Part shown: positions 43,343-57,118 of the stretch, in pieces
How the letters are laid out: each line of letters starts with the position of its first letter
Position numbering within the stretch: the stretch's first letter is position 1
Source of the DNA: Eubacteriales bacterium
GTDB taxonomy: Bacteria; Bacillota; Clostridia; Oscillospirales; CAG-272
Assembly (NCBI GenBank): GCA_045661325.1
Contig: JAZRFK010000093.1
Span: 3,585-67,584, forward strand
DNA: 64,000 bases
Reading direction: 5' to 3'
Translations under genes and position numbers: made by a program
The notes under the pieces: model-generated
What the model was told of the DNA's origin: nothing
What the model saw: only the letters and a program-made list of their open reading frames with translations
Databases searched by the model: none

Positions 43343-43418
43343 TGGTGCTCCTGCGGGGATTCGAACTCCGGACACCTTGATTAAAAGTCAAGTGCTCTGC
43401 CGACTGAGCTACAGGGGC
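43343..43418 (-). tRNA. tRNA-Lys (anticodon UUU), CCA encoded
   Basis: The minus strand reads GCCCCTGTAGCTCAGTCGGCAGAGCACTTGACTTTTAATCAAGGTGTCCGGAGTTCGAATCCCCGCAGGAGCACCA. It folds as a cloverleaf with anticodon loop CTTTTAA. Hand-folding shows two A-C mismatches. Confidence 0.85.
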
Positions 43419-52378: not shown

Positions 52379-52460
52379 GCGGGTATGGTGGAACGGCAGA
52401 CACGCTGGTCTTAGGAACCAGTTCGTAAGAGTGTGGGTTCAAATCCCACTACCCGCACCA
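52379..52460 (+). tRNA. tRNA-Leu (anticodon UAG), CCA encoded
   Basis: GCGGGTA...TACCCGCACCA forms a perfect acceptor stem. Anticodon stem-loop is CTGGT-CTTAGGA-ACCAG, T arm is GTGGG-TTCAAAT-CCCAC, and there is a long variable region. Confidence 0.9.
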
Positions 52461-52461
52461 G

Positions 52462-52498
52462 AAAAAAGGAACTTTTGTCTACCAAAAGTTCCTTTTTT
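52462..52498 (+). terminator. Terminator-like hairpin after tRNA-Leu (also the first, variable hairpin of ladder element A)
   Basis: AAAAAA-GGAACTTTTG-TCTAC-CAAAAGTTCC-TTTTTT. Confidence 0.8.
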
Positions 52499-52504
52499 GT
52501 TTAT

Positions 52505-52683
52505 CCAAGCCGCAGGCTTGGTATATCATCGACGCGCGAAGCGCGGTGCATATCATCAGCCCCTTTGGGGCTGTATCTCATCACGCGACAGCGTGTATTT
52601 TCCTGCGGCTTGATGATATACAATGCTTCGCATTGATGATATACCGCAACAAGTTGCGGATGATATCCACGCGTTACGGCGTG
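52505..52683 (+). repeat. Hairpin-ladder element, copy A (7 short hairpins separated by 3 GTATATCATC-type and 3 GATGATATAC-type linkers)
   Basis: Read directly from the sequence (see findings for the coordinates of each module). A second copy lies at 53670-53869. Confidence 0.9.
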
Positions 52684-52710
52684 ATTTGGAAGGGAGATTG
52701 CGGAAAATAC

Positions 52711-52739
52711 TTGAAGTGCTTTGCAAAATATGATATAAT
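52711..52739 (+). promoter_or_regulatory. Cassette-1 promoter (TTGAAG-17-TATAAT, TGa-extended)
   Basis: The hexamers have exact 17-nt spacing. The AAGGAG SD at 52748-52753 and the ATG at 52761 follow. Confidence 0.55.
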
Positions 52740-52760
52740 ACCATTCAAAGGAGTGATATT

Positions 52761-53108
52761 ATGGCTAAAAACTATTTATTGATATATTCGGAGCGGCTTG
52801 CGACCGATATCGAATTACTTTGTCAAAATATAAAAGCCACCTCCAACACTCTTTTCCAAATTCGCAAGAGTTCAAGTAGTGTGTACGCAAATATTCGTGA
52901 AGCCAATTACGGACAGAGCAAAGCAGATATGCTTTCGAAATTTGAAATAGCTCTTAAAGAATGTAGTGAAACAGAAGGTTGGTTACAGTTGTTATTTAAT
53001 ATGAATGCCATACATGAAGAAACCTATAAAAATTATCGAAATCTTTGCGGTCGTATCAGACGAATGTTGATTGCGAGTTGTAAAACATTAAAGGAGGATC
53101 TTAAATGA
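52761..53108 (+). CDS. Four-helix-bundle protein (23S rRNA intervening-sequence protein / Avd-like family)
   Basis: 115 aa. The core SSSSVYANIREANYGQSKADMLSKFEIALKECSETEGWLQLL matches the family pattern (SxxSIxANIxEAxGxxSxxDFxxxLxIAxxExxETxxWLxLL). Confidence 0.85.
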   Translation: MAKNYLLIYSERLATDIELLCQNIKATSNTLFQIRKSSSSVYANIREANYGQSKADMLSKFEIALKECSETEGWLQLLFNMNAIHEETYKNYRNLCGRIRRMLIASCKTLKEDLK

Positions 53109-53554
53109 AATTTCGCAGAAACGTCAAAGAAGAAAAGTTTTCCTGTGGAGTAGCAATAGGTGGTCTTGTGTTACTTGCCATACTTTTTGTTATTTTCGTC
53201 ACAACACGCGACAATGCTTTATTGAATTTGATTGTTCCTGCCATACTGATTCCGCCGCTTTCCTTTTTTATAAGCATTTCAATGAAAAAGCAATTTGTCG
53301 AATTTAAGGAAGACAAAATCATTTTGATAAACGGAAACGGACGAGATATTACGATAGATATATCTGAAATTGAAGCAATAATGATACCGTCTGCTACAGC
53401 ACTGAAAAGTAAAATACAGGATAATCCCATTATTCTTAAAAGGCGAGTAATCAAAAACATAATCTCATATAGCATTGAAATTGAAGAATATATAAAGAAA
53501 AATCTAAAAATTGACATAGTCTATTACGACAAATATAGTAGGGCTATAAAATAA
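53105..53554 (+). CDS. Two-TM membrane protein with cytoplasmic beta-rich domain (possibly bacterial PH/DUF304-like)
   Basis: 149 aa. ATGA start/stop overlap with the upstream gene. Two hydrophobic helices are followed by a ~90-aa domain. The bPH assignment rests on architecture only. Confidence 0.6.
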   Translation: MKFRRNVKEEKFSCGVAIGGLVLLAILFVIFVTTRDNALLNLIVPAILIPPLSFFISISMKKQFVEFKEDKIILINGNGRDITIDISEIEAIMIPSATALKSKIQDNPIILKRRVIKNIISYSIEIEEYIKKNLKIDIVYYDKYSRAIK

Positions 53555-53623
53555 TCATTTTTATAGTTGACCTTTTCTTCGCTTTTACCTCGATTTTTGT
53601 CCTTTTATTACGTTTAAGGCAAC

Positions 53624-53663
53624 AAAAAGAGAACATTTGTCAACCGACAAATGTTCTCTTTTT
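53624..53663 (+). terminator. Terminator-like hairpin after cassette 1 (variable first hairpin of ladder element B)
   Basis: AAAAA-GAGAACATTTGTC-AACC-GACAAATGTTCTC-TTTTT. Confidence 0.8.
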
Positions 53664-53669
53664 GTTTAT

Positions 53670-53869
53670 CCAAGCCGCAGGCTTGGTATATCATTGAATG
53701 TATAACGCGCCTGTGGGGAGATATACTTTCGTATATCATCAAGGGCGGCGAGCCGCCCTTGTATCTCATCACGCGACAGCGTGTATTTTCCTGCGGCTTG
53801 ATGATATCCAGCCCTACGGGCTGATGATATACCGCAACAAGTTGCGGATGATATACAAGGCTTTGCCTT
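53670..53869 (+). repeat. Hairpin-ladder element, copy B
   Basis: Same module order and linkers as copy A. Three blocks are identical to A, and four hairpin positions are replaced by unrelated palindromes. Confidence 0.9.
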
Positions 53870-53896
53870 GATTTATTGCCTAAAGTGTGATATAAT
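53868..53896 (+). promoter_or_regulatory. Cassette-2 promoter (TTGATT-17-TATAAT, TGa-extended)
   Basis: The hexamers have exact 17-nt spacing. It sits at the same position relative to the ladder element as the cassette-1 promoter. Confidence 0.55.
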
Positions 53897-53936
53897 TAAC
53901 ACACCGATAAATAAGAATTTGACGGAGGCAGTTACT

Positions 53937-54530
53937 ATGGATGTAATCGATCATTATGATCTGTTGATAGAAGAACAAAACGATCCCTTCCGTGATCCCC
54001 CCGTTTTACAAGAATATATGAGCAAATGGGATGGCGAACCGTTTTTGGAAGCGTTGGAGCTTTCCAAAGATAAGTCAGTTTTGGAAATCGGTATTGGCAC
54101 AGGAAGAATCGCCGTTAAGGTTACTCCGTGCTGCTTAAAGATGACAGGCATTGATATTTCTCCCAAAACCACCCAGCGAGCAAAAGATAATCTAAATGAA
54201 TACAGCAATATTTCCTTCATATGTGGCGATTTTAATGTTCACGAATTTGACGAAACATTCGATGTTATATATTCGTCCCTCACAATGATGCACTTCGAAA
54301 ACAAGGAAGCTGTCATCAACAAGGTTGACAAATTGTTAAATGATAACGGCATCTTTTGCTTATCCATTGATAAAAACCAAAGTGAATATATTGATATGGG
54401 AACTCGCAAAATCAAGGTGTATCCCGATACTCTCGATAATATAACATTGATTATCGAAGAAACCGCAATGTCGGTTGTAAATGTAATTGAAACCGATAAC
54501 GCATACATTATTGTAAGCAGAAAACAATAA
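53937..54530 (+). CDS. Class I SAM-dependent methyltransferase (small-molecule/Methyltransf_11/25-like)
   Basis: ATG at 53937 follows GACGGAGG. Motif I is VLEIGIGTGRIA, and post-I is the acidic GID. No DPPY/NPPY or cytosine-C5 motifs were seen. Confidence 0.8.
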   Translation: MDVIDHYDLLIEEQNDPFRDPPVLQEYMSKWDGEPFLEALELSKDKSVLEIGIGTGRIAVKVTPCCLKMTGIDISPKTTQRAKDNLNEYSNISFICGDFNVHEFDETFDVIYSSLTMMHFENKEAVINKVDKLLNDNGIFCLSIDKNQSEYIDMGTRKIKVYPDTLDNITLIIEETAMSVVNVIETDNAYIIVSRKQ

Positions 54531-54560
54531 ATCAAATTCCAATTTATCGAGTGGCACACT

Positions 54561-54615
54561 TGGTGTACTTTTAGTCGTTCTTACCCCACTTTACGCACCT
54601 TTTGGTCGTTCTTTT
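54561..54615 (+). repeat. Direct repeat C1 (~55 bp), left boundary of cassette 3
   Basis: TGGTGTACTTTTAGTCGTTCTTACCCCACTTTACGCACCTTTTGGTCGTTCTTTT. It aligns without gaps to 57064-57118, with 6 mismatches. Confidence 0.85.
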
Positions 54616-54733
54616 CATATTTTCGGCACAATTTAGGGAAAATCAAAGCAAAATACAGGTAAATTAGGCGCTGCAGCGGTCGCAAGGACTGTCGCAGCGT
54701 TGTTTTTATGCCCGCAGCAGCGTAAAAATGGGC

Positions 54734-54753
54734 TGTACTTTTTGTCGTTCTTT
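54734..54753 (+). repeat. Partial third copy of the C-repeat 5' part (TGTACTTTTTGTCGTTCTTT)
   Basis: Matches C1 positions 54564-54583, apart from 54576 and the final base. Confidence 0.7.
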
Positions 54754-54833
54754 GCTCAAATAAAGAACAGCAAAAACATTGCGTCATGAGAGAGTTGAAC
54801 CAAAATGCTTGTAAACCTTTTCACCGTTTCCTA

Positions 54834-54862
54834 TTTACAAAAGTAAGGTATTATGCTATACT
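54834..54862 (+). promoter_or_regulatory. Cassette-3 promoter (TTTACA-17-TATACT, TGc-extended)
   Basis: The hexamers have 17-nt spacing. The GAGGAAGGA SD and the ATG at 54908 lie downstream. Confidence 0.45.
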
Positions 54863-54907
54863 TATTCTGTATAAGTATAAATATAGTGAGGAAGGATAAC
54901 CGTTGCT

Positions 54908-56737
54908 ATGAACATAAAAAATATCAATGTTAACAAATACCCGATTTCGCAAATGTTAGACCCCGAGTCGAAAATTGTCTTTGAAATTCCGAAATACCAG
55001 CGTGAGTACATCTGGGGTGCACATCAATGGGAACAGCTGTTTGATGACCTCTCGGAAAACAACAACGGTTACTTTTTAGGATCGATAATTTGTATAAATA
55101 CGACTGTCGATTCAATCAATTCTCCGAAGTTTGAAGTCGTTGACGGACAACAGCGTCTCACAACGATCAGCATTTTTATGACTGCGCTTTATTCCGAACT
55201 TTTTAAGCTGTACGATCAATTAGACGAAGACCAGCAGGCAGATGTCCTTCAAATCAAGCGCAGACTGGTATTGAAAAAGACTGAGTCTGGAATTCGTATC
55301 ATACCGCAGGTGCAGAACAGTAACTTCGACGATTATATGGGATTGCTTGCCGAAAACAAACTAATTGCACCGAGAAGCATGCCAAAATTCGCAGGCAATA
55401 GAAGAATTGTTAAAGCGTACTGGTATTTCAAAAAGCGCATTGAAGCAGAAATTGCGGAAAGCGACGATGCAGTTGCAAAGCTGTTCGATATATTGGATAA
55501 GGTAAATTCGGCTATTCTGGTAATGATTGATGTATCGAATCATGCGGACGCATATACCCTTTTCGAATCGCTCAATAATCGTGGAACACCGCTTACGGCA
55601 GTTGACCTCATCAAAAATCTGCTTCTGTCGAAGCTCGATGTCAATGACAGCGAAAACCTCGATTACTATTTTACCCGTTGGACTGAAGTGATAGATTATA
55701 TCGGGGACGATTACTCGGTACAAGAGCGTTTCTTTCGACAAAACTACAATGCGTTTAGAAGCGCAATAAACGCACCTTTTATTAAGGATAAGGACGATCG
55801 TAAGTATCCGCTCGGACCTCTCGCAACACGGTCGACAATGCTCGATATTTACGAACGCATGGTAGTACGTAATCCAAAAGAATTTTTGGAAGTTATACTG
55901 GAACATGCAAGAATTTATTCGGGCATTATACTTCGCAACACCGAGGGTTTAGATCCTGTATTAAAGGAACGCTACCTTGATTTACAAAGAGCACAAGGTG
56001 CGCCGTCATATCTGCTTTTGATGTACCTTACAAAGAACAGTAAAACTTTAGGACTCACAGAAACGGATATGGTCGCAATAAGCGGTTTGCTGGTTCGTTT
56101 CTTCGTGCGCCGAAACTTAACAGACACGCCTCCTACTAGAGACTTAACCCGTTTGTTCATGCTGTTTATCGAAGAATTTGAACAGAACGGATACACCGGC
56201 ACAGATATTTACAATGCGCTTCGTGAAAAGCTTATCAGCTGCACAGCCAGCGATGAACTGTTTGAAGAAAAGCTTCGCGGGTCTGTTTACGCAGAAAACT
56301 TCGGCGTAACGCGTTTTGTGCTTTGTGCCTTGGCGAAAAAAGGCATGACAGTAGAGACGCAGGTGGACCTTTGGCGCATGAATAACAACAACCAGTATGT
56401 CTGGACGATTGAGCACATTTTCCCGCAGGGACAAAACATCCCAGATCATTGGGTAGATATGATAGCAGATGGTGATTCAGACAAAGCAAAGGAAATTCAA
56501 ACGCTTTATGTACACACATTCGGCAACCTCACGATCACAGGATACAACAGCACTTTAAGTAATAGGCCATTCGAAGATAAAAAGAATCATAAAGATTCCA
56601 ACGGCAATTACATTGGTTATAGAAACGGGTTGAATTTGAACGCCGATGTTTGCGACAAGGAAGCATGGACGCTCGATATTATCAAAGCGCGTACAGATAG
56701 ACTCGTAAAAGAAATTTTGGCTGAATTTCAGCTATAA
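54908..56737 (+). CDS. DUF262/DUF1524 two-domain nuclease (GmrSD-like type IV restriction family)
   Basis: 609 aa. N-terminal ParB-like DUF262 domain with the VVDGQQRLTT motif. C-terminal His-Me finger DUF1524 with WTIEHIFPQ ... HTFGNLT. Confidence 0.88.
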   Translation: MNIKNINVNKYPISQMLDPESKIVFEIPKYQREYIWGAHQWEQLFDDLSENNNGYFLGSIICINTTVDSINSPKFEVVDGQQRLTTISIFMTALYSELFKLYDQLDEDQQADVLQIKRRLVLKKTESGIRIIPQVQNSNFDDYMGLLAENKLIAPRSMPKFAGNRRIVKAYWYFKKRIEAEIAESDDAVAKLFDILDKVNSAILVMIDVSNHADAYTLFESLNNRGTPLTAVDLIKNLLLSKLDVNDSENLDYYFTRWTEVIDYIGDDYSVQERFFRQNYNAFRSAINAPFIKDKDDRKYPLGPLATRSTMLDIYERMVVRNPKEFLEVILEHARIYSGIILRNTEGLDPVLKERYLDLQRAQGAPSYLLLMYLTKNSKTLGLTETDMVAISGLLVRFFVRRNLTDTPPTRDLTRLFMLFIEEFEQNGYTGTDIYNALREKLISCTASDELFEEKLRGSVYAENFGVTRFVLCALAKKGMTVETQVDLWRMNNNNQYVWTIEHIFPQGQNIPDHWVDMIADGDSDKAKEIQTLYVHTFGNLTITGYNSTLSNRPFEDKKNHKDSNGNYIGYRNGLNLNADVCDKEAWTLDIIKARTDRLVKEILAEFQL

Positions 56738-56742
56738 AGAGA

Positions 56743-57063
56743 ATGAACATGGCAAATAGTTCAGTAATAAGGATATTGAAGCTGTACAAATTACTTCGCC
56801 AGGAAACCAACGAACAACACCCCCTGCTTGCCACTACGGTTTGTCAGCGTTTAGTTGAACAAGGTATTCCCTGCGACCGCAGGACATTAACACGAAATGC
56901 CAGAACGCTTAACGATTACGGTTACGAAGTAATGGACAGATTGGTTGGGCATGAAAAAGCTTACGCTGATATAAAATCGCAGCTGGTGGAATTGCTTGCA
57001 AAGCTGGCAGCGCTCATCAGCGAGAAGAAGCACATGTTCGGCGGCGGATACGCGTTCTTCTAA
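56743..57063 (+). CDS. HTH regulator fragment (N-terminal wHTH of the WYL/BrxR-like class, no WYL domain)
   Basis: 106 aa. IRILKLYKLLRQETNEQHPLLATTVCQRLVEQGIPCDRRTLTRNARTLNDYGYEV resembles the HTH_11-type N-terminus of WYL regulators. The ORF stops exactly at repeat C2. Confidence 0.55.
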   Translation: MNMANSSVIRILKLYKLLRQETNEQHPLLATTVCQRLVEQGIPCDRRTLTRNARTLNDYGYEVMDRLVGHEKAYADIKSQLVELLAKLAALISEKKHMFGGGYAFF

Positions 57064-57118
57064 TGGTGTACTTTGGGTCGTTCTTCCCCCACCTTACGCA
57101 CCGTTTGGTCGCTCTTTC
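57064..57118 (+). repeat. Direct repeat C2, right boundary of cassette 3
   Basis: TGGTGTACTTTGGGTCGTTCTTCCCCCACCTTACGCACCGTTTGGTCGCTCTTTC, the partner of 54561-54615. Confidence 0.85.

Follow-up and report, generated by a model that had tools for sequence, protein, structure and literature searches.

The repetitive extragenic palindromes (REP) of Enterobacteria and Pseudomonas, and the bacterial interspersed mosaic elements (BIME) composed of them, are intergenic composite repeats in which palindromic units are combined with conserved linker motifs; found at the 3' ends of transcription units and variable in the number of their units, they are believed to function as DNA or when single-stranded (PMC2817692). 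An element of similar make-up, about 200 bp long and made of small perfect hairpins strung together by a fixed linker of 10 bases, is present in two copies, A (52499-52690) and B (53667-53872), in a stretch of 64,000 nucleotides from Eubacteriales bacterium (GenBank assembly GCA_045661325.1, contig JAZRFK010000093.1, positions 3,585 to 67,584 of the forward strand), the whole of which is referred to hereafter as the window. A preceding sequence-only reading of the window had drawn attention to the fact that the two copies share their linkers and not their hairpins. The comparisons described below show that the element belongs to a large family of gut Oscillospirales-type Clostridia which is uncatalogued in Rfam, in the plasmid and phage collections and in the literature searched. 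With high confidence it can be regarded as a new BIME/BOX-like modular family, tied to tRNA 3' ends and to cassette boundaries.

Comparison with described systems

The element departs from REP and BIME in several respects. Its linkers are conserved and its palindromes vary, the reverse of what is seen in REPs; its units run one way within each half and are mirrored about the centre, whereas those of BIME alternate; its hairpins are shorter (13-20 nt), and it is tied to a terminator, to tRNA 3' ends and to a downstream promoter. Indeed, in place of the conserved 20-40-nt palindrome with a GTAG-type head that characterizes a REP unit, the hairpin slots hold 34-53 palindromes of 9-30 nt, and in place of an alternating orientation the canonical order LLLRRR (L and R being the left and right versions of the linker) is found in 68 of the 122 elements that were oriented. 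More than 100 copies per genome and a REP-associated tyrosine transposase (RAYT) would be expected of REP/BIME; two copies occur in the 64-kb window and neither a RAYT nor a Y1 transposase was seen near the copies of the family. The pneumococcal BOX elements (boxA-boxB(n)-boxC) are likewise intergenic and modular, with a variable number of internal units and mutually complementary flanking modules, and can influence neighbouring genes; on the other hand, they bear no sequence relation to the element, their modules measure 45-59 nt and are not single hairpins, and they have neither a tie to tRNA ends nor mirrored halves.

Integron attC sites, to which the sequence-only reading had pointed, offer a useful analogy, sharing with the element conserved short boxes, a variable folded interior that is conserved in structure, and a position at the borders of small, diverse and co-oriented accessory genes arranged in arrays. 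The element is not, however, an attC site: instead of the core RYYYAAC ... GTTRRRY it has the boxes GTATATCATC and GATGATATAC, repeated 2-6 times, with no GTTRRRY; its hairpins, 88-99% Watson-Crick paired, show no conserved bulges comparable to the extrahelical bases and central spacer of attC; and no counterpart of the integron platform (intI, attI/Pc, promoterless cassettes) was found, ~140 loci containing no recombinase and the cassettes having promoters of their own. Moreover, attC is one hairpin whereas the element has many, with perfect stems. To our knowledge, integrons are essentially unknown in Firmicutes.

Clustered small c-GNA-g hairpins are also found in the single-strand initiation signals of the phage G4 origin and of RSF1010 (ssiA and ssiB) and in the hairpin promoters of phage N4. 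ssiA and ssiB lie on opposite strands, an arrangement to which the two halves of the element can be likened. The hairpins of these signals work in single-stranded or supercoil-extruded DNA and their motif is documented (PMC13037366). Mini-hairpins of the same c-GNA-g / GCGNAGC type are present in the element; the described signals, however, are phage or plasmid origins or promoters, whereas the element is chromosomal and lies behind tRNA genes, with no phage or plasmid match and no primase or Rep gene nearby. The intervening sequences of 23S rRNA lie within 23S helices, encode an S23p four-helix-bundle protein and are cut from the RNA by RNase III. Like the element, they are small units rich in inverted repeats, located at a stable-RNA gene, the only conserved gene being that of a PF05635 four-helix-bundle protein; they differ in that the element follows a tRNA gene and a terminator and that most of its copies are without a four-helix-bundle gene. 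From an array of clustered regularly interspaced short palindromic repeats (CRISPR) the element is set apart by 10-nt repeats in two orientations, by palindromic inserts drawn from a repertoire and by the absence of cas genes.

Architecture of the family

At least 120 loci in species-representative genomes match a single pattern spanning the centre of the element and two right linkers, and nearly all of them belong to metagenome-assembled genomes of Clostridia from the ruminant or human gut (Acutalibacteraceae, Oscillospiraceae, Christensenellaceae and 'Eubacteriales'). All the loci of the family were gathered with a pattern demanding the canonical linker, so that the statistics given here are biased towards the canonical class and against divergent relatives such as a second family seen at L244 (3670-3860), a degenerate element of like design with linkers GTGATATTAT on one side and ATAATATCAC on the other and with very short hairpins (TGCAAAGCA, TGCGAAGCA).

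The full unit begins on the left with an A-run, a perfect terminator hairpin, a T-run and TTTATCC, followed by hairpin 0 (HP0) and usually by three repeats of GTATATCATC plus a perfect hairpin of 5-9 bp; then come an A/T spacer, X' (the complement of the 5' arm and loop of HP0), usually three repeats of GATGATATAC plus a hairpin, and a terminal (T)TGATT. Elements departing from the canonical order have 1-6 units per side. The linkers fall into three classes, namely GTATATCATC/GATGATATAC, GTATGTAATC/GATTACATAC (L225) and GTATGGAATC/GATTCCATAC (L279), within each of which the left and right versions change in concert in all units. A strict ladder of nested L:R pairs was predicted by RNAalifold, yet each such pair is either unvarying or mismatched, and nested covariation is absent at linker positions 2/9 and 5/6, so that this model was rejected; only the changes at class level are concerted between L and R. 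The linker is therefore read here as one oriented motif used both ways, which a trans-acting factor may recognise or conversion may homogenise, and not as a strict L:R helix.

Within the window, GATGATATAC or its complement occurs 13 times with at most one mismatch, 12 of these occurrences being inside the two copies, as compared with 1.5 +/- 1.2 in shuffled sequences; the two copies also fold better than shuffles do (z = -5.0 and -5.3). No Rfam family matches the element even at E <= 10, only the two tRNAs passing, and the best score within it is that of Gut-1 (17 bits vs a gathering score of 50, E = 4). The blastn search with copy A gave no match in 72,556 plasmids or 50,697 phages, scanning of viral contigs for linker patterns brought up nothing hairpin-linked, only coding or tandem repeats from giant viruses and phages, and no record of the family was found in the literature searched by linker sequence and keywords.

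Among the structural variants, a conserved ~45-nt insertion, itself structured, occupies the HP0 loop in L184, L232, L237 and L279 (…GTAGGGGTTCCCCGAAGCGAGCTTGCCGAGCTTTGGGGGTTCCCGTAGG…), two elements diverge around one common bidirectional terminator with no tRNA between them in L264 (minus orientation, ~position 158), and truncated or remnant copies are seen in L245, L267 and L155.

The two copies in the window

Copy A starts at the first base past the CCA of tRNA-Leu(tag), a plus-strand gene detected by ARAGORN and Rfam (52379-52460) whose CCA end it adjoins, whereas copy B is placed after the terminator of the preceding two-gene cassette. Bidirectional intrinsic terminator A (AAAAAAGGAACTTTTG TCTAC CAAAAGTTCCTTTTTT, 52462-52498), which travels with the element, is followed on the plus strand by GTTTATCC and HP0 (together 52499-52521; HP0, CCAAGCC GCA GGCTTGG, at 52505-52521) and by the left array (52521-52596), made up of L1 (52521-52530), HP1 (52531-52547), L2 (52548-52557), HP2 (52558-52572), L3 (52573-52582) and HP3 (52583-52596). 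The centre (52597-52611) consists of a T-rich spacer and X' (CCTGCGGCTT(G), 52601-52611/12), beyond which the right array (52612-52690) comprises R3 (52612-52621), HP4 (52622-52634), R2 (52635-52644), HP5 (52645-52658), R1 (52659-52668), HP6 (52669-52683) and an ATTTGG tail. In copy B, bidirectional terminator B (53621-53666, perfect arms of 21 nt) precedes a left part (53667-53784, like the rest of the copy on the plus strand) composed of TAT, HP0 (53670-53686), L1 (GTATATCATT, 53686-53695), a 35-nt degenerate module (53696-53730), L2 (53731-53740), HP2 (53741-53760), L3 (53761-53770) and HP3 (53771-53784); the centre again has a spacer and X' (CCTGCGGCTT, 53785-53799), and the right array (53800-53872) runs through R3 (53800-53809), HP4 (53810-53822), R2 (53823-53832), HP5 (53833-53846), R1 (53847-53856), HP6 (53857-53869) and GAT.

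The long-range complement of HP0 (CCAAGCCGCAGGCTTGG), namely CCTGCGGCTTG at the centre of the element, had been overlooked in the earlier reading. The 5' arm and loop of HP0 (CCAAGCCGCAGG), designated X, are complementary to CCTGCGGCTTG in the minimum free energy fold, the resulting long-range pairing X:X' being designated P1. Also overlooked was the fact that the right end of the element, TTGATT, is the -35 of the promoter of the following gene; in copy B a TG-extended TATAAT follows it after exactly 17 nt.

The three blocks reported to be identical between the copies are so (52494-52529 = 53659-53694, 52573-52619 = 53761-53807 and 52635-52666 = 53823-53854), and the differences between A and B concern whole hairpins. 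The HP2 slot (AGCCCCTTTGGGGCT in A, AAGGGCGGCGAGCCGCCCTT in B) and the HP4 slot (AATGCTTCGCATT in A, AGCCCTACGGGCT in B) differ entirely and are palindromic in both copies, and the hairpins upstream of the copies, i.e., the terminators, are perfect in A and in B (inverted repeats I4 and I1, respectively). The description of HP6 as a perfect palindrome holds for copy B (AAGGCTTTGCCTT) but not for copy A, where an imperfect hairpin has a 5-bp stem and a 6-nt loop; furthermore, the 36-nt insert at 53695-53730, taken to be devoid of a hairpin, is actually a weak one, and a similar module is present in L194.

Conservation of structure and exchange of modules

The proposal, made from two copies, that structure is conserved and sequence is not is borne out by the family as a whole: among 61-67 independent copies there are 34-53 distinct sequences per slot, with 88-99% Watson-Crick pairs as against 55% in shuffled slots. 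It would have been weakened had the slots of further copies been as often non-palindromic as palindromic, or had A and B been the only copies; the slots of further copies are palindromic and the copies number far more than two. Stem covariation, suggested as a check, was counted on alignment A1 of 61 copies for HP3-HP6 and for the long-range X:X' helix. Pairing is found in 96.6% of the stem cells, 21 of the 26 pairs are changed on both sides and 315 cells are compensatory, whereas none of 500 shuffles reached these values and slid partners pair in 31-41% of the cells. The two strands of P1, although ~100 nt apart, are paired in 98.8% of the cells, with 3 covarying pairs, and HP0 covaries likewise (27-30 double changes), so that X, its local partner x' and the distal X' change together.

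A mechanism that writes new palindromes between fixed linkers had been offered as one explanation of the A/B mosaic and is unneeded: for 7 of the window's 10 modules exact copies exist in other genomes, without exception in the corresponding half of the element, which indicates that hairpins are shuffled at the linkers and not written de novo. The module AATGCTTCGCATT is found in 22 loci, CGCAACAAGTTGCG in 15 and AGCCCCTTTGGGGCT in 12; related modules are separated by one or two compensatory changes (e.g., AA-NN-CTTCG-NN-TT), and one module can fill different slots. Rearrangements between copies are seen as a tandem duplication of hairpin-plus-linker pairs in L226, as loss of units (LRRR, LLRRR), as a deletion between the direct repeats x' and X' in L263 and as a hybrid element in L253, in which HP0 and X' are of different classes and mismatched. 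As a pattern, then, the mosaic shows whole hairpin-plus-linker modules from a common repertoire being exchanged, duplicated and deleted at identical 10-bp linkers. The stems would be kept strictly Watson-Crick by selection for hairpin formation, and intra-palindrome template switching, in which a change in one arm is copied into its partner, probably contributes to keeping them perfect.

Indications of a role as DNA

Whether the structure is selected in RNA or in single-stranded DNA had been left open; the evidence obtained here leans to DNA. The array is bounded by a strong terminator on one side and a promoter on the other, and no promoter is predicted on the minus strand. The polarity of the loops is mirrored, with 50 G..A and 2 T..C loops in the left half as opposed to 1 G..A and 67 T..C in the right half (Fisher 4e-30), and most loops are triloops closed by C-G, G-N-A in 31 cases on the left and the complementary T-N-C in 46 cases on the right. 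In view of this mirrored polarity, the strand reading GTATATCATC bears c-GNA-g loops in both halves. The c-GNA-g motif forms extraordinarily stable DNA mini-hairpins (PMC13037366; PMC3201870), which are encountered in the hairpin promoters of phage N4 as well as in single-strand initiation signals (PMC13037366). In the stems of the right half G.T and A.C amount to 0.8% and 1.2%, respectively, and in those of the left half to 3.8% and 0.8%, while the tRNA stems of the same loci have 8.1% G.T and 0.5% A.C. Such a scarcity of wobble pairs fits a constraint on duplex palindromes or DNA hairpins and fits RNA less well. Taken together, the placement between terminator and promoter, the mirrored halves, the c-GNA-g loops and the rarity of wobble pairs favour a role as DNA.

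Genomic position

In 52 of the 109 copies lying away from contig edges a tRNA gene on the same strand, with 26 anticodons represented, ends 49-64 nt before L1, which places the terminator directly after the CCA. The 25-nt core of the window's terminator occurs in 20 metagenome contigs and is followed by the array in 15; at least 8 tRNA species (Leu, Gln x 2, Trp, Ala, Tyr, Ser) have this identical terminator immediately behind their CCA, so that the terminator belongs to the repeated unit. The element is not general to the tRNA genes of this genome, since tRNA-Lys(ttt) (43343-43418, minus strand) is followed by an ordinary terminator (AAAAGCCGCAG TTTTAAA CTGCGGCTTTTTT) without any array of hairpins and linkers. 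Loci with several copies form co-oriented arrays of the type tRNA, element, cargo, element, cargo. The terminal TTGATT often provides the -35 box of the accessory genes that come next: in 30 of 104 copies a good -10 is placed 16-18 nt past it, compared with 1.9% by chance. The genes downstream of the element are diverse, that of the four-helix-bundle protein being the first in 14 of 91 elements.

A comparison with a relative (L253), the HAD protein of which is 81% identical to that of the window, shows that the order methionyl-tRNA synthetase, sigE, spoIIGA, HAD, tRNA-Leu, same terminator is kept and that similarity stops at TTTATCC; beyond this point L253 has its short hybrid element and an Mrr-type gene. 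On this comparison of sequences, the element marks the start of the variable region. Nearer relatives (94-95% identity of the HAD protein) are on contigs of ~2 kb or less, one of which stops at the terminator while the other is without the tRNA. Metagenome contigs carrying the orthologous HAD and tRNA-Leu locus (L254, L255, L256) break within or just past the terminator or element. Interruptions of this kind suggest that the repeat breaks short-read assemblies.

A classical tRNA-integrating island was considered for the region behind tRNA-Leu and rejected: the 3' end of tRNA-Leu is not repeated elsewhere in the window, hence there is no att-type direct repeat, and the island at 52700-57100 has no integrase. 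Rejected likewise were an invertible segment between X and X', no inverted copy being found among ~150 HP0 sites, and a fixed crossover point, the ends of homology between loci being spread from the terminator to the right array.

Possible functions

What can be proposed, tentatively and as a possibility held at rather less than even confidence, is that the element acts as DNA and constitutes a recombination-prone boundary module of tRNA-anchored accessory-gene cassettes. It would work as DNA and not as an RNA gene, the c-GNA-g mini-hairpins forming on the GTATATCATC strand, that is, on the top strand in the left half and on the bottom strand in the right half, and being extruded when the DNA is supercoiled or single-stranded, whereas the 10-mers between the hairpins would be read by a sequence-specific factor. 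The element would close the upstream transcription unit, carry the next promoter and be the place where cassettes and modules recombine, at the repeated linkers. A number of observations weigh against this proposal. Where the four-helix-bundle gene heads the cassette, variability sets in at its stop codon and not at the element, and the breakpoints of homology between loci are not at one fixed position; all-against-all clustering of the open reading frames (ORFs) of ~140 loci disclosed no recombinase, transposase or other conserved enzyme gene near the elements, yielding only spurious repeat-spanning ORFs, an ABC transporter and XRE regulators. With no enzyme partner identified and no excision product, circle junction or inversion variant seen, the mechanism remains inferred. 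In addition, G.T exceeds A.C in the left half (29 vs 6), which leaves room for the folding of read-through RNA or for some RNA role; the family statistics carry the bias due to the canonical linker demanded by the collection pattern; the perfect palindromy could be a mutational by-product instead of a selected feature; and the boundary-module proposal does not explain what the X:X' pairing and the conserved 10-mer are for.

The tie to tRNA genes and cassette arrays could also reflect a dedicated site-specific recombination site, functionally analogous to attC, in which one strand folds, the L and R linkers are the recombinase boxes (paired or repeated half-sites), the 3-nt linker core sets the compatibility class and a recombinase encoded elsewhere inserts and excises cassettes behind tRNA genes. 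This is unlikely, though by no means negligible: tRNA genes serve as anchors of the cassette arrays, the break in synteny coincides exactly with the element, the identical terminator and element stand behind many tRNAs, the three linker classes change jointly in L and R, the RNAalifold consensus pairs L1:R1 and L2:R2 into what would be a ladder of four-way junctions, and the stems are Watson-Crick only, with DNA mini-hairpin loops. On the other hand, ~140 loci contain no recombinase gene, the nested L:R pairs lack position-wise covariation (L3 is commonly GTATCTCATC opposite R3 GATGATATAC, and position 2/9 variants are uncorrelated), L and R unit numbers are often unequal, the cassettes have promoters and terminators of their own and the breakpoints are dispersed. 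It is more doubtful still that the element represents the recombination site, or a homing end, in an unrecognised Firmicutes cassette system, in which units of terminator, hairpin-linker array, promoter and gene would be inserted precisely after the tRNA CCA and stacked in arrays, the 3-nt linker core setting the specificity and the frequently linked four-helix-bundle (Avd / S23p-like) protein being part of the machinery; if true, this would connect the units with those 23S rRNA intervening sequences, themselves unexplained, in which the same four-helix-bundle gene is found. If the linkers are instead protein-binding sites on duplex or locally melted DNA, the element would be an array of six oriented 10-bp sites upstream of and overlapping a promoter, serving as an operator or silencer of accessory genes, as a site comparable to a centromere or as a paired signal for priming or loading such as ssiA/ssiB of RSF1010, with the hairpins as extrudable spacers. 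The strict conservation of the 10-mer across Clostridia families while the hairpins vary freely, the use of one motif in both orientations with concerted changes in the variant classes, the abutment of the array on the -35 box, the presence of CCGAAGG- and GCGAAGC-type mini-hairpins both in established single-strand initiation signals and in the hairpin promoters of phage N4 (PMC13037366), and the position of the variant-linker element L225 before a divergent four-helix-bundle gene are all in line with such an array; it is nevertheless unlikely, given that the sites are spaced 19 to 45 bp apart and out of helical phase, that there is no candidate binder (four-helix-bundle proteins are not known as sequence-specific and the gene is found at only ~15-25% of the copies), that there is no match to plasmid or phage origins and that the perfect palindromy of the spacers is left unexplained.

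A function at the RNA level, either as a two-sided fail-safe terminator or insulator, in which polymerase coming from either side would first transcribe 3-4 units of GC hairpin plus GUAUAUCAUC, or as a non-coding RNA or structured trailer coupled to the transcription of tRNA, would account for the constant location between transcription units, directly past a canonical terminator and often behind highly expressed tRNA genes, for the mirror polarity, which suits a bidirectional terminator, for the terminator-like scores of HP3 (with TATTTT) and HP6 (with ATTTATT), for the excess of G.T over A.C on the top strand of the left half and for the folding z-scores of about -5; moreover, hairpin clusters have been proposed as terminators (PMC8355165). 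In the element, the upstream hairpin is a canonical bidirectional terminator; within the array HP3 and HP6 are the only ones that score as terminator-like, the other hairpins preceding GTATATCATC. The linkers are not U-tracts, and a conserved 10-mer would be needless for a terminator. Since, in addition, no promoter drives the array and a strong terminator precedes it, wobble is 2- to 10-fold rarer than in the tRNA stems of the same loci with no strand bias in the right half, Rfam has no match even at E <= 10, and GNA triloops are a stability motif of DNA and not of RNA, such a function is quite doubtful. Even less probable is a selfish repeat without host function, related in type to BOX or to the miniature inverted-repeat transposable elements and spreading behind terminators and tRNA genes by means of a transposase acting in trans. 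Its terminal inverted repeats could be the L and R arrays, which face each other in the manner of transposon ends with several sites, the identical terminator and element are found behind many tRNAs, truncated and remnant copies exist (L245, L267, L155) and contigs often break at the element (L254-L256); yet the copies are mosaic and not near-identical, no clear target-site duplication is seen, the flanks TTTAT ... GATTTAT, which could be one, being low-complexity T-runs, no transposase is linked, and the compensatory upkeep of 6-7 hairpins and of X:X' across distant genera would be unexpected of transposon spacer DNA. Lastly, the scaffold (terminator, HP0, linkers and centre) can be identical while the hairpins differ completely, as would be the case if new palindromes were written between fixed linkers by a CRISPR-like acquisition of hairpin 'spacers'; this is, however, extremely improbable, the hairpins forming a limited repertoire common to different genomes and slot- or half-specific families one or two compensatory changes apart, with no acquisition genes present.

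Should the boundary-module proposal hold, gut Clostridia would possess a widespread and strongly structure-constrained DNA element marking the plug-in points of accessory and defence genes behind tRNA genes; it would allow such variable loci to be located in metagenomes by sequence, be a naturally occurring instance of stable DNA mini-hairpins at work in a chromosome and explain the assembly breaks at the element sites. It may amount to a cassette-exchange system in a phylum in which we know of essentially no integrons. Even as a mere repeat, the element would define a BIME/BOX-like family in uncultured Oscillospirales with clean covariation data.

Cassette genes and further repeats

The region behind tRNA-Leu is a low-GC island (52700-57100, 36-43% GC vs ~50%) whose cargo comprises a four-helix-bundle protein, a small membrane protein, a methyltransferase dependent on S-adenosylmethionine, a GmrSD/HEC-06-type nuclease (54908-56737) and a 106-aa ORF (56743-57063) with no family match. 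Cassette A is preceded by a predicted TG-extended promoter (TTGAAG-17-TATAAT, 52711-52739, plus strand), followed on the same strand by the gene of the four-helix-bundle protein (52761-53108; domain match to PF05635 / TIGR02436), the commonest first gene after the element, and by that of the membrane protein (53105-53554), the start of which overlaps the preceding stop (ATGA). The second gene varies between loci; indeed, the gene in ATGA overlap with that of the four-helix-bundle protein differs at nearly every locus, encoding membrane proteins, lipoproteins and others (53105-53108 in the window; L144, L152, L217, L266, L268, L271). Several element-adjacent four-helix-bundle copies are 5'-truncated pseudogenes (L271, L273, L170). 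The promoter of cassette B (53868-53896, plus strand) takes its -35, TTGATT, from the end of HP6 and the element tail, with a 17-nt spacer and the TG-extended TATAAT, and serves the methyltransferase gene (53937-54530, plus strand; domain match). Exact-protein look-ups for the four-helix-bundle, membrane, HAD and NhaC proteins of the window found nothing on record.

The methyltransferase ORF is bracketed by an inverted repeat of ~20 nt (53906-53925 / 54531-54553; CCGATAAATAAGAATTTGAC ... AAATCAAATTCCAATTTATCGAG), the 5' copy of which is a conserved leader, CGATAAATAAGAATTTG, located right after the -10 in L147, L161, L178, L209, L242, L244, L264, L272 and L274; L205 and L220 look like ORF-less, 'empty' versions of this leader-flanked unit. 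A second repeat family is found at cassette 3' ends, where pairs of CTTTTnGTCGTTCTT-like units 31 nt apart lie within ...GTACTTTTAGTCGTTCTTACCCCACTTTACGCACCTTTTGGTCGTTCTTT... (window 53565-53620, 54559-54615, 54738-54753 and 57062-57117; L200, L205, L220, L263 and L253:10300-10360). These units resemble the 3' arm of the element terminators, and in L200 such a repeat stands in for the terminator before the element. The terminators of L135, L139, L161 and L166 and that of the window at 53621-53666 contain inverted pairs resembling Spo0A boxes (TGTCGAA / TTCGACA) or SinR sites (GTTCTCT / AGAGAAC), a resemblance that may be a coincidence.

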